Notes under the pieces: generated by a model
Databases searched by the model: none
Seen by the model: only the letters and a program-made list of their open reading frames with translations
What the model was told of the DNA's origin: nothing
DNA from: Candidatus Omnitrophota bacterium
GTDB taxonomy: Bacteria; Omnitrophota; Omnitrophia; Omnitrophales; Aquincolibacteriaceae
Direction of reading: 5' to 3'
Length of the DNA stretch: 64,000 nt
NCBI GenBank assembly: GCA_022709525.1
Contig: JAKLIQ010000003.1
Location: forward strand, 65,771 to 129,770
Part shown: positions 10,266-63,575 of the stretch, in pieces
Layout: every line of letters starts with the position of its first letter
Numbering within the stretch: position 1 is the stretch's first letter
Made by a program: the position numbers and the translations under genes

Positions 10266-10363
10266 CAGAGCGCAGAGCGTAGAGCGCATAGAATTCAGGC
10301 TGCTGTTTTCTGTTTCTTGAAATGTTTTACCTCTACGCTCCCCGCTATTCGCTAACCGCTAAG
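10266..10363 (+). repeat. symmetric array: 3 tandem heptads CAGAGCG/CAGAGCG/TAGAGCG (10266-10286) and 3 inverted heptads CGCTAnn (10343-10363; rc nnTAGCG), plus 10-bp inverted repeat gagcgtagag/ctctacgctc
   Basis: read directly; located between dut stop and ftsK start. Confidence 0.55.
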
Positions 10364-10368
10364 AGATT

Positions 10369-12765
10369 ATGAAAAAAGAAAGAATCAACGAGATCTGGGG
10401 AGTTTTTTTTCTGCTTTTGGGGCTTTTCACTTTCGCGAGCCTCTTTTTCTATCACGCCGAAGATATCGCGTTCTATTCTTCGCATCCAACAACGCCCGCC
10501 GCCAATTACGCGGGGGTTTTCGGGGCTTATCTCGCGTTCGGGCTTTTTCTTGTTTTTGGCGTAAGTGCTTTTATCATCCCGTTCGTTTTCCTGCTTTGGG
10601 CGGAATGTTTTTTCCTTCAAAAAGTCCCGGAGCGGAAACTTTTTAAATTTTTAGGTCTTGGGATCGCGCTCCTTTCCGTCGCGACGCTTGTCGCGATCAC
10701 CGTCGGTCCGGCGCAACGCTTTGTTTACGGAGGCGCGTTCGGTTATGTGGCCGGGAACCATCTCCTGCGTTATTTTGGCCGTCTCGGAAGCTATATTCTT
10801 GCCGGCTCGGCATTGCTTTTGTCGCTTCTTCTGGCTACCGATTTTCTTCTTTACCCGCTGTTCCGCTCGATCCTTGAAAAGTGCCAGGATCTTTTTGCCG
10901 CCTTCACCGCCAAATCTTCAAAAGGTCCGAAAAAGAACGGGAGTATTTTTACGCTGGCTCAAAAAGAACAGGAAAAACCCTCAAAAGATCTGAAACTCAA
11001 GGAAAAAGAGAAAGAAAGACCGGCCCAGCGTATGCCGGATATTCCGCTGAAGATCAAAACCTACCAGCCTGCCGCTGGCATGTCAGAAGACAAGCCGCGT
11101 CAGGAGAAAAAGATCGCTAAGGAAGAACCTAAAGAAGCTCCGAAGAAGCCCGTTGTTCCGCCACCGCCCAAAACAGAAACGCCGGCCAAAGAAAAATCGG
11201 CCGAAACGCCTTTTGCCGGCGAAGCTTCCTTTAAAGGCGTGATCGGCTCCCAGCCGAAGGCGGACGCGAATTATCAGTTCCCGTCACCGGACCTCTTGAA
11301 ACGCCCGACAGATGAAAAACTCGAAGGCGACGATCTGGCGGCCAACTCCAAAGCCATTGAAGCGACGCTTGCCGAGTTCGGGATCGAAGCCAAGGTGGTT
11401 GAAGTTGAACAGGGTCCCAAGATCACGCTTTATGAGGTCCTTCCGGCGCCCGGTGTCCGGGCTAATTCGATCTCCGCTTATGAAGATGATATCGCGATGG
11501 CGTTAAAGGCAACGAGTATCCGTATGATCATTCCGATCCCCGGCAAACAAACGATCGGGATCGAAGTGCCGAATTCCATTTCGCGGGCGATCCTTGTCCG
11601 TGAAATGATCGAGAATTCCGATTTCCGTTCGCGCAAATGCGTCCTGCCGTTGATCCTCGGGAAAGATACGGGCGGCAAGCCGATGATCGCGGACCTTACC
11701 GCGATGCCGCACATTTTGATCGCGGGAACAACAGGAAGCGGTAAGACCGTCTGCATTAATTCCATTATCGCCGGATTTCTTTATCATTGCACGCCTTCCC
11801 AGCTCAAGCTTGTCATGATCGATCCGAAAATGGTGGAACTCGCCGTTTATAACAAGATCCCGCATATGCTTTCGCCGGTCGTGACGGATGTCCGCAAAGC
11901 CGCAAACACCCTAAACTGGGTCGTGATGGAAATGGAAAAGCGCTACCGGCTTTTTTCCAAAGTGGGCGTCAGGAACATCCACGGGTTCAATAACCGCGAA
12001 CTTTCCGAAGAGGGGATTCAGGAGGTTCAGGATGCCGGCGACTCGGAGAATGTTGTGCCGGCCTCCATCCCTTATATCGTGGTCATTATTGACGAGCTTG
12101 CTGACTTGATGCTTGTGGCGCAGGACAAAGTGGAAACGGCCATCACGCGCCTCGCGCAACTTTCGCGCGCGGTCGGCATTCACCTGATCTTGGCGACCCA
12201 GCGACCTTCAGTCGATGTCATTACCGGCGTTATCAAAGCGAACTTTCCCGCCCGCGTCGCGTTCAAGGTCGCCTCAGTTGTGGACTCGAGGACGATCCTG
12301 GATAACAAAGGTGCCGACCGGCTTTTAGGCCGCGGCGATATGCTTTTTATCCAGCCGGGAAGTGACAATATGATCCGCGGCCAAGCGCCACTCATTGTCG
12401 ATGAAGAGATCAATCGCCTCGTGAGCTTTGTGTCCCAACAAGGCAAGCCGGAATATCACTCGGAGATCCAAGTCGCGCAGAGCGGCCTCGCGCAGGGCAG
12501 CGCCGGCGAAAAAGACGAAGTTTTTGAAGAAGCGAAGAGGATCGTCCTGACGACGCGTAAGGCATCGACTTCCTATCTGCAGCGCCGGCTTAGCTTAGGT
12601 TATGCGCGCGCAGCGCGCGTCGTGGATCAGCTTGAAGCCGAGGGCGTGATCGGCCCTCAGGACGGCGCCAAACCCCGCGAGATCCTTCTTCCAAATCCAG
12701 CCGGCGAATATCCCGAAGCGACGCCTGCCGGCAGCTCCGAGACGGGCGAAGAAGATAACGCTTAG
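10369..12765 (+). CDS. ftsK: DNA translocase FtsK/SpoIIIE
   Basis: 798 aa; N-terminal TM segments, P/K-rich linker, Walker A GTTGSGKT, C-terminal gamma (winged-helix) domain SYLQRRLSLGYARAARVVDQLE. Confidence 0.92.
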   Translation: MKKERINEIWGVFFLLLGLFTFASLFFYHAEDIAFYSSHPTTPAANYAGVFGAYLAFGLFLVFGVSAFIIPFVFLLWAECFFLQKVPERKLFKFLGLGIALLSVATLVAITVGPAQRFVYGGAFGYVAGNHLLRYFGRLGSYILAGSALLLSLLLATDFLLYPLFRSILEKCQDLFAAFTAKSSKGPKKNGSIFTLAQKEQEKPSKDLKLKEKEKERPAQRMPDIPLKIKTYQPAAGMSEDKPRQEKKIAKEEPKEAPKKPVVPPPPKTETPAKEKSAETPFAGEASFKGVIGSQPKADANYQFPSPDLLKRPTDEKLEGDDLAANSKAIEATLAEFGIEAKVVEVEQGPKITLYEVLPAPGVRANSISAYEDDIAMALKATSIRMIIPIPGKQTIGIEVPNSISRAILVREMIENSDFRSRKCVLPLILGKDTGGKPMIADLTAMPHILIAGTTGSGKTVCINSIIAGFLYHCTPSQLKLVMIDPKMVELAVYNKIPHMLSPVVTDVRKAANTLNWVVMEMEKRYRLFSKVGVRNIHGFNNRELSEEGIQEVQDAGDSENVVPASIPYIVVIIDELADLMLVAQDKVETAITRLAQLSRAVGIHLILATQRPSVDVITGVIKANFPARVAFKVASVVDSRTILDNKGADRLLGRGDMLFIQPGSDNMIRGQAPLIVDEEINRLVSFVSQQGKPEYHSEIQVAQSGLAQGSAGEKDEVFEEAKRIVLTTRKASTSYLQRRLSLGYARAARVVDQLEAEGVIGPQDGAKPREILLPNPAGEYPEATPAGSSETGEEDNA

Positions 12766-14788: not shown

Positions 14789-15535
14789 TTAACGTCCTTT
14801 AAGATCCAGTAGTTTTGTTTTTTTCTTCAGGAAGCGCAGGGTCAAATAGATCAAAAGCCCCGTTCCAAAAAAGATCCACCAGAAAAGATCGACGCTTTTT
14901 TGACGTTCGATCACAAGGTCGGCAAGCACCCCGAGGATCGTAAAAACCGTGACGATCCCAAAAAAACTCGAATGTTCCCGGCGAAGCACCGTTTTCCATT
15001 CAAAAGGAAGATCTGGTTTTTCCCAGCCACGGAATTTCGGGAAAGCCATAGGCGTTTTGTTGGACCAAGCGGTAAAAGTATCCCCGAATTTTTCCCTCAG
15101 GAACTCTTCTTCGGTATAAATGATCCTTTCGTAATAACGCCAAAAAACGATCGATCCAATGATGACAAACCACCAAACCTGGGTGAAAAGAAGCACTCCC
15201 AGCACAAGCAGGTAATTGCCGAGATAAAGCGGATTCCTTACGATGGAATACATTCCCTTTGTATTAAGGCTTTCCGCGACCTGGCGTTCCACATTACGCC
15301 CGGAAGTTCCTTTCGGGACGTATCCGGCGACAAGGCATCGGACGATAAGACCGGCCAAGGATATCAAGATACAGAACGCCTCCCAGAAGCTGTCGAACCG
15401 GTCCCCGAAAAGACGTTTTGTGTATTGAGTGTCAAAAAGCGCGAGAATGACCACCGGGATGGCCAGGAAGGGAAGATAGCTGCGCCAGCGGAAAAGAAAA
15501 GCTCCTTGTTTTTTATAGGTCTCTCGAAGTCCCAT
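14789..15535 (-). CDS. ICMT/PEMT-family membrane methyltransferase-like protein
   Basis: 248 aa polytopic; RNPLYLGNYL motif resembling isoprenylcysteine carboxyl/phospholipid methyltransferases. Confidence 0.5.
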   Translation of the reverse strand: MGLRETYKKQGAFLFRWRSYLPFLAIPVVILALFDTQYTKRLFGDRFDSFWEAFCILISLAGLIVRCLVAGYVPKGTSGRNVERQVAESLNTKGMYSIVRNPLYLGNYLLVLGVLLFTQVWWFVIIGSIVFWRYYERIIYTEEEFLREKFGDTFTAWSNKTPMAFPKFRGWEKPDLPFEWKTVLRREHSSFFGIVTVFTILGVLADLVIERQKSVDLFWWIFFGTGLLIYLTLRFLKKKTKLLDLKGR

Positions 15536-34421: not shown

Positions 34422-34607
34422 ATGGTGCAAAAAATAGCGAATTTTTTCCAGGAAACGCAGCAGGAGCTTAAAAAAGTCACCTGGCCGACCTGGAATGAAT
34501 TATGGCAGGCGGCGATGGTCGTGATCGCAGTGACTTTCTTTGCGTCCGCCTTTATCGCGATCGTTGATTTTTGCATCTCCACTATTCTCAGGATACTGAT
34601 TGATTAA
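34422..34607 (+). CDS. secE: preprotein translocase subunit SecE
   Basis: 61 aa single-TM. Confidence 0.88.
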   Translation: MVQKIANFFQETQQELKKVTWPTWNELWQAAMVVIAVTFFASAFIAIVDFCISTILRILID

Positions 34608-34611
34608 CGCC

Positions 34612-35148
34612 ATGGCCGCCGACGCAAAGTGGTATGTAGTTCATACGCAGACGGGCATGGAAGCTAAGGCCCGGGCGAGCTTGATCGGCCACGCGGAGAC
34701 CGCGGGGCTTTCGCATTTGATCCACGAAGTGCTGATCCCGATGGAAAAGGTGAGCGAGGTCAAGGGCGGCAAAAAGAGGATCAGTGAACGGAAGTTTTTC
34801 CCGGGTTACATCTTAGTCAAGATGGAATTAACCGACGAAAGTTGGTATCTGGTTCGCAATACCCCGGGGATTTCGGGTTTTATCGGCTCGGGCAAGAATC
34901 CGATCCCGCTGACGGAAAAAGAAGTTGGCGCGATCATCAAAGAGCAGGAAGAAAAACAGACCAAGCCGAAACCCAAGGTCGAATTTGAAGAAGGCGAAAG
35001 CGTCCGGGTCAAAGAAGGCTCGTTCGCGAATTTTAACGGGACGATCGAACAGATCAATCCGGAGCGCGGCAAGATGCGCGTGATGGTCACGATCTTCGGC
35101 CGGTCGACGCCCGTCGAACTGGAATACTGGCAGGTAGAGAAAATCTAA
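34612..35148 (+). CDS. nusG: transcription termination/antitermination factor NusG
   Basis: 178 aa from ATG; NGN domain + KOW. Confidence 0.93.
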   Translation: MAADAKWYVVHTQTGMEAKARASLIGHAETAGLSHLIHEVLIPMEKVSEVKGGKKRISERKFFPGYILVKMELTDESWYLVRNTPGISGFIGSGKNPIPLTEKEVGAIIKEQEEKQTKPKPKVEFEEGESVRVKEGSFANFNGTIEQINPERGKMRVMVTIFGRSTPVELEYWQVEKI

Positions 35149-35187
35149 ATGACGACATCAGTTGCGCTGAATAGCGTAACTGATAAG

Positions 35188-35290
35188 TCGGAATTTACCC
35201 CGCACTAATTTAAAAACAGTGTGGGAAATTTGAAAAACCAGATTATTAACCGGACCCAGCAATAGAAATTAGTGCGGGGTTCAATTCACA
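35188..35290 (+). repeat. E1: ~100-bp element bounded by conserved termini tcgGAATTTACCCCGCAC ... GTGCGGGGTTCAATTCaca (the 15-bp GAATTTACCCCGCAC / GTGCGGGGTTCAATTC core is a near-perfect inverted repeat), upstream of rplK
   Basis: second copy at 62378-62495 with identical termini, divergent interior. Confidence 0.6.
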
Positions 35291-35339
35291 TAAATAACTT
35301 ATGTCGTGAAACACTCCATAAGTTATAGGTTCATTGAAC

Positions 35340-35771
35340 ATGGCAAAAGAGATCATTACAAAGATCAAGTTGCAGATCCCGGGCGGACAAGCGAACCCCG
35401 CTCCGCCGATTGGCCCCGCGCTCGGCCAGCATGGCGTCAACATCATGGAGTTCTGCAAACAGTTCAACGAACGCACTAAAGACCGCCCGGGCACGATCCT
35501 TCCGGCGGTGCTCACGGTCTATAAAGACAAATCCTTTACTTTTATTCTCAAAACGCCCCCCGTGGCAGCCCAGATCAAAAAAGCGGTCGGTCTCGCCAAA
35601 GCGTCCGGGGAGCCCGGCCGCACGATCATCGGCAAGATCACCAAAGACCAGGTCCTTGAGATCGCGCGCCAAAAAATGGTGGACCTTAACACGACTAAGA
35701 TCGAAAGCGCCTGCCGCATTGTCGAAGGCGCGGCCCGCAGCATGGGCATCGAAGTTGTGAAGTCCAAATAA
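35340..35771 (+). CDS. rplK: 50S ribosomal protein L11
   Basis: 143 aa from second ATG. Confidence 0.95.
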
Positions 35772-46263: not shown

Positions 46264-46345
46264 GAGGGGACTCGCCCCTCGGGACTAGGGACTCGTAAAA
46301 ACGAGGAACCAAAACGAGTCCCGAGGAACAGGTCCCGAGTCCCTT
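46264..46345 (+). repeat. R1 copy of structured intergenic repeat between rpsG and fusA
   Basis: nested hairpins; aligns with revcomp of 26331-26395. Confidence 0.55.
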
Positions 46346-46357
46346 TTGGGAAAATTT

Positions 46358-48439
46358 ATGGCAGACGAAAAGAAAATACATTTTCCGATCAATAAGATAC
46401 GCAATATCGGCATCGCCGCCCATATTGACGCGGGGAAGACGACTACCTCCGAGCGCATCCTTTATTACACCGGCCGGGCCTACAAGATCGGCGAGGTGCA
46501 TGAAGGCACCGCGGTCATGGACTGGATGGAACAGGAGCAGGAGCGCGGCATCACGATCACCTCGGCCGCGACGACCTGTTTCTGGAAAGATTGCCGCATC
46601 AACCTGATCGATACCCCAGGGCACGTGGACTTCACGATCGAAGTCGAACGTTCCTTGCGCGTGCTGGACGGCTGCGTCGCGGTTTTTGGCGCCGTCGAAG
46701 GCGTGGAGCCGCAATCCGAGACCGTGTGGCGCCAGGCAGACCGTTATCATGTGCCGCGCATCGCCTTCATCAATAAGATGGACCGCACCGGTGCGGAATT
46801 TGAAAAGAATGTCCAGCAAATGCGCGACCAGCTTGGCGCGAACGCCGTTCCGATCCAGATCCCGCTTGGGCTTGAAGAAAAACATAAAGGCGTCATCGAC
46901 CTTGTCGAGATGAAAGCGTACATTTTTAATGACGAGACTCTTGGCGCGAAATTCGATATTGCCGAGATCCCGGCAGAATACATAGAGCAAGCCAAAAAAG
47001 CTCGGGAGTTCATGATCGAAAAGGTTTCAGAATATGATGACGCTTTGCTCCATAAATTCATCGAAGGGCAAGTGCCCACAGTCGCCGAGATCAAATCCGC
47101 CATCCGCAAGGGGACGATCAGTTTAAAAATGGCCCCCGTGATCGTGGGTTCCGCCTTGAAAAACAAAGGCGTTCAACAGCTTTTGGACGCAGTCGTGGAT
47201 TATCTTCCTTCGCCAAAAGACATCCCGCCGGTCAAAGGGACCGAGCCGGGAACAGAAAATGAAATTCACCGCGAAGCCGATGATAAGGCCCCTTTGTCCT
47301 GCTACGCGTTCAAGATCGCAAGCGATAAGTTCGTGGGGTCTTTGACCTACATCCGTATTTACTCCGGAACGCTTTCTTCGAGTTCTTATATTTACAATGT
47401 TCGCACCAACAAGACCGAGCGCATCGGCCGTCTTCTTCTCATGCATGCCAACAAGCGAGAAGAGATCGATGAGGCCGGCGCCGGGAACATCGTCGCGGCA
47501 GTCGGCCTTAAAGAGGTCAAGACCGGCGATTCCCTTTGCGTTGAAAACGATCCGATCCTTCTTGAGACCATGTTCGTCCCTGAGCCCGTGATCTGGATGG
47601 CGGTCGAACCGAAGACCAAAGCGGACCGCGACCGCTTGTCGGATGCGATCGGAAAACTCGTCAATGAGGACCCGACGTTCCGCGTCAAGACGGATCAGGA
47701 AACAGTCCAGACTTTGATCGGCGGCATGGGGGAACTTCATTTAGATATCAAAGTCGACATCATGAAGCGCGAATATAACGTCCAGGTCAATGTCGGCAAA
47801 CCCCAAGTCGCTTATAAAGAAACGATCCAGGGCGTTGCCGAGGCTGAAGGAAAATTCATCAAGCAAACCGGTGGCCGCGGGCAATACGGTCATTGCTTCC
47901 TGAAGATCGAGCCTCTTGAGCGCGGCAAAGGGATCGAATTTGAGAATAAAGTTGTCGGCGGTTCTATTCCCCGTGAATATATTCCCGCCGTGGAATCGGG
48001 CGTAGAAGATGCCTGCGCGAACGGCGTCCTGGCGGGTTATCCCGTGACGGATGTCCGCGCGATCGTTTATGACGGCAGCTATCATGACGTGGACTCCTCG
48101 GAGATCGCGTTTAAAATGGCCGGCATTTTTGCCTTTAAAGAAGCTTTCAAAAGAGCAAAACCCGTTCTTTTAGAGCCTATCATGTCGGTGGAGGTGCTGG
48201 TTCCGGAAGAATACATGGGTGATGTGATCGGCGACCTGAACTCCCGCCGTTGCGTGATCCAGGAGCTCACAAACCGCGGCCATCTCAAGGCGATCAAGGG
48301 GCTTGTGCCTCTTTCCGAGATGTTCGGTTATGCGACTTCGGTCCGTTCCCTGTCGCAGGGACGCGCGACCTACACAATGGAACCGCACACTTATCAAGAA
48401 GTCCCGAAAATGATCGCGGACAAGATCATCGCAGGATAA
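46358..48439 (+). CDS. fusA: elongation factor G
   Basis: 693 aa from ATG (track used upstream TTG); AHIDAGKTT. Confidence 0.97.
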
Positions 48440-48450
48440 ACCCCGTTAGA

Positions 48451-48543
48451 GACTTGAAGTTCGGGGAGAGAAATTTAAGAAGCAGTGACAGAAAAGTATT
48501 AACCCAAAAAGGATAGCCCGAGAGGTTAAGGCCTCTAACGGGG
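48451..48543 (+). promoter_or_regulatory. S10-operon leader: 11-bp perfect inverted repeat ccccgttagag / ctctaacgggg enclosing ~70 nt
   Basis: read directly between fusA stop and rpsJ start. Confidence 0.35.
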
Positions 48544-48549
48544 TAAAAC

Positions 48550-49622: not shown

Positions 49623-49735
49623 TTTTATGGTTAGCGGTGCCAGCACTGTTAACCCTTAAAATAAAAAAGAAAACAGTGCAGGAAGGAACCAAAGCAAGTT
49701 CCTAAGCCGGAAATCATAAGGAAAGGTAAATAAAA

Positions 49736-61309: not shown

Positions 61310-61339
61310 TCCGTCATCATCAATCAATAAAGGAACGAT

Positions 61340-61714: not shown

Positions 61715-62338
61715 ATGGGAAGGTATCGCGGTCCAGTTATTCGGTTGCACCGTCGCGAGGGCGTCAATCTCGGTCTCAAAGGCCGTCGCGTCACTGATGA
61801 AAAATATGACAAACGTTTAGGGAAGCCGCCCGGGCAGCATGGCCTTTCCCGGCAAAAACTCTCCGACTACGGGGTTCAGCTGCGCGAAAAACAGAAAATG
61901 AAAAGGATCTATGGACTTGGCGAACGCCAGTTCCGTGTATTCTTTAAGCGGGCGGTGCGTATGAAGGGCGTGACCGGCGAAATGTTGATCCAGCTTCTGG
62001 AGCGGCGCCTGGACAATGTTGTTTTCCGTCTTCTTTTCGGGTCTTCCCGCCGCGAAGCGCGTCAGATGGTCGGGCATGGGCATATCACTGTGGACGGCAA
62101 AAAGGTCGATGTTCCGTCCTACATCGTGAAAGTGGGCCAAAAGATCGGCCTAAGGCAAAAAGAAGCGACCGCCAAACGGGTGCAGGCAAGTCTTGAGAAA
62201 TGGAAAGACCTGAATGTTCCCGAGTGGTTGACCCTCGATCGCGAGAAACTGACAGCCGAAGTCATGAGACTTCCGACCAAAGCGGAAGCCGGTTTGCCGG
62301 TCGAAGAGTCGCTGATCGTGGAATTGTATTCTAAATGA
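61715..62338 (+). CDS. rpsD: 30S ribosomal protein S4
   Basis: 207 aa. Confidence 0.96.
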   Translation: MGRYRGPVIRLHRREGVNLGLKGRRVTDEKYDKRLGKPPGQHGLSRQKLSDYGVQLREKQKMKRIYGLGERQFRVFFKRAVRMKGVTGEMLIQLLERRLDNVVFRLLFGSSRREARQMVGHGHITVDGKKVDVPSYIVKVGQKIGLRQKEATAKRVQASLEKWKDLNVPEWLTLDREKLTAEVMRLPTKAEAGLPVEESLIVELYSK

Positions 62339-62344
62339 CGTCAT

Positions 62345-62372
62345 ACCTTATGCTGCATTTGCAGCATAAGGT
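62345..62372 (+). other. perfect 12-bp stem / 4-nt loop hairpin (accttatgctgc-attt-gcagcataaggt) right after rpsD stop; no U-tract
   Basis: read directly. Confidence 0.5.
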
Positions 62373-62377
62373 ATCGG

Positions 62378-62495
62378 ACGGAATTTACCCCGCACCCAGA
62401 GCGGCGCGGGGGCGGAATGAAGATTGTTTTTTTGAAATAAAGTTTTAAGGACTCCGTTCGGCTTATTTCAAGCTGGGTGCGGGGTCCAATTCACA
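62378..62495 (+). repeat. E2: second copy of the GGAATTTACCCCGCAC...GTGCGGGGTCCAATTCACA element, upstream of rpoA
   Basis: termini identical to E1 at 17/17 and 19/20 positions. Confidence 0.6.
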
Positions 62496-62567
62496 GACGG
62501 CCTAACGGCCTATCATTTAGGATGCAAAAGCGTCCTAAATAATCTGTTCATTGGAGGAGAAAATACA

Positions 62568-63575
62568 ATGGGTATTCGTTGGAAAACATTTGAAATGCCG
62601 AAGCGCCTCGAAGCGGAACAAGGGTCGCTGACGCCTAATTATGGCAAGTTCATTGCCGAACCTTTCGAGCGGGGTTATGGCACCACGATCGGCAACGCGC
62701 TTCGCCGCGTGCTGATCTCTTCGATCGAAGGGGCCGCCGTGACCAGCATCAAGATCGACGGCATGCTCCATGAATTCTCCACGGTCGAAGGGGTTGCCGA
62801 AGACGGCGCTCAGATCGTAATGAACGTGAAAAAGATCGTTCTGCGTTATCACGGGAAAGGCCCCAAGAAGATCTACATCGACGTCAAAAAACAGGGCCCA
62901 GTCAAGGCCGGCGACATTCAGGCCGACGAAACCGTCGAGATCGTCAACCCGGAGCTTGTGATCTGCAATTTAAGCAAGTCCCAGACGTTCAAAATGGAGA
63001 TGGAAGTGGGCCGCGGCCGCGGTTATGTTCCCGCTGAACGCAACAAGCAGGAAGATTCGTCTATCGGTGTGGTGACCGTGGATTCGATCTTTTCGCCCGT
63101 GACCAAGGTGAATTTTTACGTGGAAGACACCCGCGTCGGGCAGATCACCGATTACGACCGCTTGATCCTCGAGATCTGGACGAACGGCGCCATGGGCCCG
63201 GAGGAAGCGCTTCTTTACGCGTCCAACATCCTCCAGCGCCACCTGGATGTTTTCGTCAACTACGGCGAATTGCCGGAAGAAGAAGAGGAAGAAGAGGTCG
63301 AAGACAAAGAGTTTCTTGATATGATCAATAAGCCGATCAGCGAACTGGAGCTTTCCGTTCGAAGCGCCAATTGTCTCGAAGCGGCCAATATCAAAACGAT
63401 CGGCGACCTGGTGCAGAAGACCGAAGCCCAGATGCTTAAATACAAGAATTTCGGGAAAAAATCCCTCAACGAGATCAATGCCATCTTGACCGGCATGAAT
63501 CTCCATCTCGGGATGGCCCTCGAAGGTCGTTTACCTAACAAGGGCGCAGCGGTCGCGGCCCCCAGCGAATCATAA
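62568..63575 (+). CDS. rpoA: DNA-directed RNA polymerase subunit alpha
   Basis: 335 aa; NTD + acidic linker + CTD. Confidence 0.97.
   Translation: MGIRWKTFEMPKRLEAEQGSLTPNYGKFIAEPFERGYGTTIGNALRRVLISSIEGAAVTSIKIDGMLHEFSTVEGVAEDGAQIVMNVKKIVLRYHGKGPKKIYIDVKKQGPVKAGDIQADETVEIVNPELVICNLSKSQTFKMEMEVGRGRGYVPAERNKQEDSSIGVVTVDSIFSPVTKVNFYVEDTRVGQITDYDRLILEIWTNGAMGPEEALLYASNILQRHLDVFVNYGELPEEEEEEEVEDKEFLDMINKPISELELSVRSANCLEAANIKTIGDLVQKTEAQMLKYKNFGKKSLNEINAILTGMNLHLGMALEGRLPNKGAAVAAPSES

Follow-up and report, generated by a model that had tools for sequence, protein, structure and literature searches.

The window analyzed in the present study is a stretch of 64,000 nucleotides from a Candidatus Omnitrophota bacterium (GenBank assembly GCA_022709525.1, contig JAKLIQ010000003.1, positions 65,771 to 129,770 of the forward strand), the gene order of which is that of the usual tuf-secE-nusG-rplKAJL-rpoBC-str-S10-spc-alpha array. 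Two spacers of this array carry copies of a repetitive, highly structured element, hereafter E1 and E2. E1 lies between nusG (34600-35148) and rplK, which encodes L11 (35340-35771), and E2 between rpsD, which encodes S4 (61715-62338, delimited partly from ortholog annotation), and rpoA (62568-63575); these four genes and all parts of both elements are read on the forward strand. The L11 and L6 proteins of the window are identical to those of the metagenome-assembled genome (MAG) GCA_035389965.1, an L6 with 100% identity bears the label Candidatus Omnitrophota, the relatives found with NusG are labelled Omnitrophica, and an identical E1 is present in five contigs of the same species obtained from different samples.

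The original prediction on this DNA, which was made from the letters of the window, had described E1 and E2 as elements of about 100 bp with near-identical termini, and this resemblance is borne out. The left arm, CGGAATTTACCCCGCAC, is identical at 17 of 17 positions (35189-35205 in E1 and 62379-62395 in E2), and the right arm, GTGCGGGGT(T/C)CAATTCACA, at 19 of 20, with one base different (35272-35290 and 62477-62495). The positions given for the two copies were also right, apart from the start coordinates, which were off by 1 nt; the distances to the following genes are as described (50 nt to rplK and 73 nt to rpoA), and the interiors do differ except for short common stretches. The window contains the 16-mer GGAATTTACCCCGCAC twice and no third time at up to 3 mismatches, and the 9-mer core ACCCCGCAC, counted together with its complement, occurs 4 times against an expectation of 0.42, a count that was reached in none of 100 shuffles. 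The conservation between E1 and E2 reaches outward on both sides beyond these arms. The two copies share a 5' start that overlaps the stop codon of the preceding gene, TCTAAATGACG(A/T)CAT, and a 3' end, GTTCATTG(A/G)A, which immediately precedes the next gene, and the stem continues beyond the shared arms through sequences that are complementary though different in each copy (CACTAATTT/AAATTAGTG in E1 and CACCCAG/CTGGGTG in E2).

Each whole spacer folds as three consecutive, side-by-side hairpins, H1, H2, and H3 (z = -9.7 for E1 and -8.6 for E2 versus shuffles). In the nusG-rplK spacer, the hairpins take up the full length (35146-35338), and in the rpsD-rpoA spacer most of it (62332-62555). 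Each arm is, therefore, a junction at which two hairpins meet; the left arm joins the 3' foot of H1 to the 5' foot of H2, and the right arm joins the 3' foot of H2 to the 5' foot of H3. The unit is thus not an element of about 100 bp bounded by terminal inverted repeats, but one of approximately 150-225 nt in which the supposed terminal repeats are internal. Regarding the mutual complementarity that had been proposed for the arms, the feet of H2 pair with each other, whereas the outer parts, GAATT and AATTC, pair only in the isolated fragment; a closing helix formed by these parts was rejected, the minimum free energy structure in full context using the feet of H1 and H3, of which only the H3 foot covaries.

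The complete three-hairpin composite E1 (35146-35338) fills its spacer, starting with TAAATGA, the TAA of which is the nusG stop codon, and ending with TTCATTGAA, 1 nt short of the rplK ATG at 35340. Its H1 (35146-35197) comprises a TAAAT/ATTTA foot, a 2x2 GA/GA internal loop, CGAC/GTCG, and a long variable stem. H2 (35197-35280), ACCCCGCACTAATTT...AAATTAGTGCGGGGT, is complementary at 15 of 15 positions and resembles a miniature inverted-repeat transposable element (MITE); it is the core that the original prediction had seen. H3 (35280-35338) comprises a TTCAAT/ATTGAA foot, a TC/TC internal loop, and a hairpin with a pyrimidine loop ('Y-type'), ACTTATG...CATAAGT. In the composite E2 (62332-62555), TAAATGA overlaps the rpsD stop codon (TGA, 62336-62338), and the 3' end, ATTGGA, merges into the Shine-Dalgarno sequence of rpoA, GGAGGAG. 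H1 of E2 (62332-62387) reads TAAAT-GA-CGTC-ATACCTTATGCTGCA...TGCAGCATAAGGTAT-CG-GACG-GA-ATTTA and H2 (62387-62485) reads ACCCCGCACCCAG...CTGGGTGCGGGGT, while H3 (62485-62555), a subtype shared with the loci L049 and L032, has a TCCAAT/ATTGGA foot, a small GGCC hairpin, and a long hairpin. As read from the sequence, the frames that run through E1 and E2 differ and no open reading frame (ORF) is conserved; a small ORF from the ATG of TAAATGA, which was considered as a candidate, was dropped for this reason.

Further copies, which the original prediction had recommended searching for, were found with the same architecture in four Omnitrophota genomes and on about 70 metagenome contigs. A 17-mer scan of one genome per GTDB species returned 81 matches, which is about the number expected by chance; 5 of these are located in 4 Omnitrophota MAGs (L032 twice, L035, L046, and L049) and are the only ones with the right arm and the three-hairpin layout, the remaining 75 or so being at chance level and without the right arm. 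The paired-arm pattern retrieved 75 metagenome loci, nearly all of which have the same three-hairpin layout. We parsed 42 distinct complete copies (149-224 nt, median 177) and built a structure alignment from the basal hairpin parts of 40 of them. The consensus is TAAAT-GA-NNNN[H1]NNNN-GA-ATTTA-CCCCGC(A/C)C[H2]G(T/G)GCGGGG-T(T/C)(C/T)AAT-TC-NNNN[H3]NNNN-TC-ATT(G/A)AA, and it very often abuts GGAGG and a start codon on its 3' side; since parts of both arms were set by the search patterns, the invariance of the arm columns is in part built in. The genes downstream of members of the family are unrelated housekeeping genes, more than 20 in number, including those for S20, RibH, P-II, MetK, IlvC, S18, ArgB, SSB, ACP, PurE, Tpx, a NYN-domain protein, FBA, RF2, FolK, GatC, XseB, and others. 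Full-text literature searches returned no account of such repeats in Omnitrophota, and we regard the three-hairpin family as new.

Compensatory changes maintain each of the three hairpins. Under the three-hairpin model, 96.3% of the cells of the 40-copy alignment are paired and 17 pairs are changed on both sides, and the covariation score of 0.362, compared with 0.075 or less when the partners are slid, was reached in none of 500 shuffles. A family-wide 4-bp segment of H1 covaries (alignment columns 8-15), as does the H3 foot (columns 49-54 with 67-72), which occurs as TTCAAT/ATTGAA, TTTAAT/ATTAAA, TCCAAT/ATTGGA, TCAAAT/ATTTGA, and TGTAAT/ATTACA. Because the H3 foot covaries with its own partner, H1 and H3 are independent hairpins and not long inverted repeats; a model of one long hairpin, in which H1 and H3 pair as 60-nt inverted repeats, was rejected, being unpaired in 29-35 of the 40 copies at 6 of the 8 stem pairs and in 10-16 at the other two. 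G-U pairs outnumber A-C mismatches, which correspond to G-U on the other strand, by 52 to 24 overall (13/2 in H1, 30/14 in H2, and 9/8 in H3), an excess that is suggestive of a fold selected on the gene-sense strand, and only suggestive because the copies are not independent.

The hairpins are also modular, in that the interior of one hairpin is 85-100% identical between copies whose other two hairpins and flanks are unrelated. A common H1 hairpin, ACTTAYG-GA-RY..RY-GAA-CRTAAGT, recurs in H3 as the reverse-complement type, and the loop of H1 is of the purine type in 22 of the 42 copies and of the pyrimidine type in none, whereas that of H3 is of the pyrimidine type in 20 and of the purine type in 2. 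The internal loops of H1 and H3 are conserved as GA/GA and GGA/GAA or as TC/TC and TTC/TCC. Upstream of orthologous NYN-domain genes, the loci L136 and L142 have flanks that are 84-93% identical and an H2 that is 94% identical, with a wholly different distal stem of H1 and an extra GC-rich mini-hairpin in the H3 loop of L142; these two sequences suggest that further small palindromes replace or invade the hairpin tips. Solo H1-type hairpins exist as well, some of them directly upstream of TTGACA boxes. Sigma-70-like promoters (TTGACA-N17-TATATT/TATACT) lie directly 3' of some members of the family or of solo H1-type hairpins (L032 4277-4320, L115 after ~12224, L150 after 5322, and L154 ~1476 and 6623), and these copies are thus located at transcription-unit boundaries and not inside operons.

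Relative to close relatives, E1 is an insertion. The gap between nusG and rplK, which is 191 nt in the window, is 1-3 nt (ATCTAAAATGGCA) in L012 (NusG identity 95%), L010 (86%), and L006, L008, and L009 (85%), and the filled and empty sites fit an insertion directly 3' of a pre-existing TAAA in ATC-TAAA-ATGG, with the original stop codon unduplicated. The rpsD-rpoA spacer is 55 nt and carries no element in L174 (RplF identity 85%), in which the 3' end of rpsD is CAAATAG, without TAAA; the corresponding sequence is TCTAAATGA in both the window and the distant relative L162, which carries a different copy of the family at exactly this junction, and the spacer is 162 nt in the P0140 contig. L173 (RplF 91%) has an E1-like copy of H2 and H3, with the same CACTAAT/ATTAGTG stem, in its rpsM-rpsK spacer, which is 30 nt in the window, and L172 (RplF 97%) has a solo H2 in its rpsN-rpsH spacer, which is 19 nt in the window. 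The family, therefore, combines insertion polymorphism between related genomes with dispersed copies, as is the case for MITEs. The short rpsM-rpsK spacers of the window (61310-61339) and L174 (15582-15612) contain TCAT-rich stretches (GTCATCATCAATCA and ACTCATCACCGAG, respectively) that resemble the 3' end of the element at the same junction in L173 (GCGCTCATTGGAG) and may, judging by this resemblance, be remnants of a deleted copy.

The H2 module also occurs on its own, in which form it behaves as a classical MITE. Among the examined Omnitrophota and metagenome loci, there are 10 solo CCCCG...CGGGG palindromes of 38-183 nt, with 13-nt arms that are complementary at 11 or more of the 13 positions, as terminal inverted repeats, and 8 of the 10 are flanked by perfect 4-bp direct repeats (TAAA, TAAG, TGAG twice, TTGA twice, and TGAA). 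Solo H2 and composites alike are shorter than ~600 bp and have no coding capacity. In 5 solo copies, a long upstream ORF has its stop codon within the left repeat, and, because the duplication usually contains this codon, the upstream gene still terminates; in 3 copies, the last G of the element and the TG of the right repeat form the GTG start of the downstream gene. The copy in the window is located in the fusA-rpsJ spacer (48441-48543, CCCCGTTAGAG...CTCTAACGGGG, without an assigned strand) between TAAA duplications on the forward strand at 48437-48440, which includes the fusA stop TAA, and 48544-48547, and the empty site is present as GGATAAAAAATGG in L173 and L174. The solo H2 of L172 is flanked by TAAG on both sides; the empty site reads TGGTAAGCGAGGAGG in L173 and L174, and TGGTAGGCGAGGAGG in the window. 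Inside composites, the sequences on either side of H2 are TTTA and TT(C/T)A; these are reverse-complementary to TAAA and T(G/A)AA and look, by their sequence, like an old duplication.

Three solo H2 copies stand between genes at L151 3334-3385, L151 6132-6255, and L160 6114-6228. The left TGAG or TGAA of these copies retains the upstream stop codon (a long upstream ORF being present only in the two L151 cases), and the terminal G and the TG of the right repeat form the GTG start of the downstream gene; for L151 3334-3385, the flanking sequence ATTATGAG...TGAGTAAA implies that the start and stop codons of the flanking genes probably overlapped before insertion.

The placement of the composites is strongly biased. 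A gene on the same strand starts just 3' of the element in 34 of the 42 complete copies, 22 of these with a recognizable Shine-Dalgarno sequence, and the stop codon of a long same-strand ORF lies inside TAAATGA in 19 of the 42; the mirror-image placement tests yielded 9 and 7, respectively, mostly antisense ORFs of real genes. Forty of the 42 copies start with TAAA, although the left arm was fixed by the search pattern, and TAAA is also present at the lone empty site. The composite has no long inverted repeats, its only terminal inverted sequence being AATGA/TCATT (5 nt).

We consider it likely that E1 and E2 are members of a modular, non-autonomous family of mobile elements, so far known only from Candidatus Omnitrophota, in which a MITE-like core is set between two inverted hairpins resembling repetitive extragenic palindromic (REP) sequences. 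The original prediction of a MITE or REP-like mobile repeat is, therefore, upheld with respect to mobility, for which the absence in close relatives, the many unrelated contexts, and the 4-bp duplications of the solo H2 argue, and not with respect to the anatomy that it described. The composite would land 3' of a pre-existing TAAA, which in gene-dense genomes would typically be a stop codon followed by A or the start of TAA(A/G)GGAGG. If TAAA, or T(A/G)A(A/G), were preferred in a strand-specific manner, the 5' end of the element would come to lie at stop codons and its 3' end at Shine-Dalgarno sequences, in a fixed orientation. By analogy with REP/RAYT or IS200/IS605, it may be moved in trans by an enzyme that reads hairpin structure rather than long inverted repeats, since hairpins that are kept by compensatory change point to the recognition of structure, in single-stranded DNA or RNA. 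The composite would be co-transcribed in the operon mRNA, in which three compact hairpins would leave the neighboring stop codon and ribosome-binding site usable, and any putative benefit, such as RNase III processing or the protection of mRNA ends as in REP, ERIC, and Correia elements, would be secondary.

Several results weigh against this interpretation. The search for target-site duplications, which succeeded for the solo H2, detected none in the composites at any offset for k = 2-6 beyond the conserved termini, and the MITE mechanism of the solo H2, therefore, cannot be transferred to the whole unit. No transposase was found between matching arms in the examined loci, in which long-range pairs of CCCCG arms enclose secA, lnt, or ORF-free DNA; a scan for HUH and Y..NP motifs detected no RAYT-like ORF in 733 kb of fragmentary Omnitrophota DNA, and the element-rich loci L032 and L151 encode no visible transposase. 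The exact ends of the composite rest on a single pair of filled and empty sites, that of E1, which fits only within 1 nt. The same junctions are filled with different hairpin sequences in distant relatives (the rpsD-rpoA spacer of L162 and the DNA ahead of the NYN gene of L136, L142, and L149), and most of the metagenome contigs carry no taxon label. The recognition of specific inverted-repeat sequences would not predict compensatory changes in the hairpins, and these changes, together with the strong co-orientation with genes and the moderate G-U excess, may reflect selection on RNA.

This last point leads to the alternative that the element is a functional cis-acting RNA, a form of 'operon punctuation' that has spread because it is useful, which we regard as rather improbable as an explanation and which may hold alongside mobility. 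The proposed roles are a site of processing by RNase III or another enzyme, a processing element having also been considered in the original prediction, protective 5' or 3' hairpins, and a device by which translation is reset after a stop codon and ahead of the ribosome-binding site that follows. Besides the maintenance of all three hairpins by compensatory changes and the frequent start of copies in a stop codon and their ending at a Shine-Dalgarno sequence or start, such a function is favored by the surplus of G-U pairs that H1 and H2 show on the transcribed strand, to which the lack of asymmetry in H3 may be opposed, and by the occupation of the same gene junction in the distant relative L162, although the element is missing from close relatives, in which the same essential operons are expressed. 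In E2, the internal C of the foot (TCCAAT) has a G of the native Shine-Dalgarno sequence as its pairing partner, which also speaks for a role in RNA; on the other hand, a strand-specific TAAA target explains both position and orientation without any function, and the exchange of hairpin interiors between the near-identical loci L136 and L142 suggests turnover rather than constraint.

A switch has a place in this alternative, since the invariant GA and UC dinucleotides of the 'internal loops' are complementary to each other and make an alternative junction 96% pairable. When a terminating ribosome melts H1, the feet could re-pair as a four-way junction (AAUGA/UCAUU with GAAUU/AAUUC). This junction is as pairable as the three hairpins, but the helices specific to it are invariant, with no covariation and with three uncompensated G-to-A changes, and it is a putative alternative that is compatible with the data. 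We hold it to be similarly doubtful that a mobile punctuation RNA spreads between cistrons for the sake of its function. The 5' end of such an RNA has stops in two frames, and its 3' end adjoins the Shine-Dalgarno sequence; its feet can, in the fold model, pair either as UAAAU/AUUUA and UUCAAU/AUUGAA or as AAUGA/UCAUU and GAAUU/AAUUC, and a terminating ribosome could remodel the fold and thereby set processing, stability, or re-initiation downstream. In a related reading, which we place at the same level of probability, the unit may be moved by a structure- and guide-directed enzyme, HUH-like or of a new type, with the stop-codon tetranucleotides as its target.

Regarding a gene-specific leader for rplK and rpoA, such as a mimic of an autoregulatory ribosomal protein site (e.g., the L1 or S4 site) or a riboswitch, both window copies are highly structured and precede ribosomal or RNA polymerase genes; however, E1 is absent at a NusG identity of 95%, the family precedes more than 20 unrelated genes, and its conserved nucleotides are helix feet with no aptamer-like core. 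The original prediction had stated that no known ribosomal protein leader was matched, and a covariance-model search of Rfam agreed with this: no leader or riboswitch appeared at either locus at E <= 10, the best local matches scoring 19 bits against gathering scores of 50-120, and only 3 tRNAs in the whole window reached the gathering threshold. This explanation, including the structured leader that had been offered in the original prediction as another possibility, if taken as specific to ribosomal proteins, is largely refuted and is in our view very improbable. A resemblance of the right arm to a tRNA T-arm (GGGGTTCAATTC) was likewise rejected; E2 has TCC, the complementary strand is missing, and ARAGORN found only the 3 true tRNAs. 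An equally remote explanation is that the arms are a promoter or operator in DNA, at which RNA polymerase binds or a transcription factor by which the downstream genes would be co-regulated, to which the A/T-rich H2 interiors and the TTGACA-N17-TATATT sequences next to or fused with some copies (L032, L115, L150, and L154) lend some color, whereas scans around E1 and E2 found neither a promoter-like site nor a terminator, H2 interiors are unconserved, many copies stand inside operons directly after a stop codon, and compensatory base-pair changes are unexpected in protein sites on double-stranded DNA.

Other repeats were encountered in the same sequences. A second, unrelated family of palindromic repeats (TTTATGGTTAGCGGTGCCAGCACTGTTAACCCTTAAAAT) occupies the rplC-rplD spacer of the window (49626-49662) as well as L172 447-472 and L173 13429-13454, and related sequences lie in L173 at 10932-11037 and 15066-15145; this second family also looks mobile, as different ribosomal-operon spacers are occupied in the window and in its close relatives. 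The rpsG-fusA spacer of the window (46264-46345) forms a strong hairpin of repeated GGGACTCG and CGAGTCCC units (-43 kcal/mol, z = -3.6), and relatives have another hairpin or a short spacer at this junction. A 51-nt direct repeat with 96% identity is present at 247-297 and 402-452 of the window. Its first copy begins within the 3' end of tRNA-Gly (192-262), and the repeat may stem either from an integrating element that left an att-like duplication behind or from the duplication of part of the tRNA. At 10269-10346, just ahead of the ORF that starts at 10369, the window has an imperfect inverted repeat of 29 nt, which is unrelated in sequence to the three-hairpin family. In L147, approximately 1.3 kb (49-1329) without an ORF of at least 80 aa is bounded by identical CCCCGTTAGAAAT and ATTTCTAACGGGG arms and could represent two separate elements or a larger non-coding element.

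If E1 and E2 are mobile, as we consider likely, small mobile elements colonize the most conserved and tightly packed operons of an uncultured phylum (nusG-rplK, fusA-rpsJ, and rpsD-rpoA). Insertion at stop codons or TAAA spares the upstream stop codon and the downstream ribosome-binding site, and the junction sometimes makes a new GTG start. The family accounts for puzzling long and highly structured spacers in Omnitrophota operons, and it provides a sequence and structure signature for genome annotation as well as markers of strain-level variation in metagenomes. It also poses a defined search problem, namely, the mobilizing enzyme of a repeat with hairpin ends, a fixed orientation, and no target duplication, and, if a function as RNA holds, it would illustrate that a module for the regulation or processing of polycistronic mRNAs can be mobile.

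Among known systems, the BOX elements of Streptococcus pneumoniae (boxA-boxB-boxC) are modular intergenic repeats with stable structures near gene starts in variable combinations, as is the present family; however, their sequence is unrelated, host and placement rules are different, and no solo BOX module with target duplications has been described. Classical MITEs, such as the Correia (CREE) elements of Neisseria, ERIC/IRU of enterobacteria, and RUP of pneumococcus, are short, ORF-free, and dispersed, and share with the Omnitrophota elements inverted-repeat ends with a target-site duplication (4 bp for the solo H2), presence/absence polymorphism in close relatives, and transcription into mRNA as long hairpins, which is presumed for the Omnitrophota element. 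RNase III cleavage has been described for Correia elements. In contrast to these MITEs, the composite has only the 5-nt AATGA/TCATT as terminal inverted sequence and lacks a duplication, each of its three hairpins evolves on its own, with covariation, and the target includes stop codons (T[A/G]A[A/G]) and is not TA.

The IS200/IS605-derived PATEs have in common with the composite subterminal hairpins, a strand-specific orientation, the lack of a target-site duplication, and an apparent landing 3' of a fixed tetranucleotide (TAAA). In addition, the terminal T[G/A]AA of the composite covaries with an internal TT[C/T]A located 5' of the end hairpin, which resembles the pairing between guide and cleavage site at the right end of IS608 and may equally well be a simple extension of each hairpin. 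The end hairpins H1 and H3 are inverted relative to each other and not in the same orientation as in PATEs, the complementary sequence at the left end lies 3' of the hairpin, and no TnpA was found in the examined loci.

REPINs and BIMEs are paired REP sequences of Proteobacteria that are mobilized by HUH tyrosine transposases (RAYT/TnpA-REP). The Omnitrophota composite differs from them in its host phylum, in its longer hairpins (about 50-70 nt), in the conserved flanks TAAAT-GA and GA-ATTTA in place of a GTAG-type 5' tetranucleotide, in the absence of a RAYT from the 733 kb of fragmentary loci, in a 3' end that abuts the Shine-Dalgarno sequence in a near-fixed orientation, and in a 'spacer' that is itself a conserved MITE-like palindrome with duplications of its own when solo. 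Similar to REPINs and BIMEs, its units are hairpins, imperfect palindromes in which the internal loops are asymmetric, and two of them flank a spacer in inverted orientation; it is intergenic, frequently lies directly behind a stop codon within an operon, and is, as far as the position of the copies suggests, part of the operon transcript; and it is modular, lacks a target-site duplication, and keeps its structure more than its sequence.

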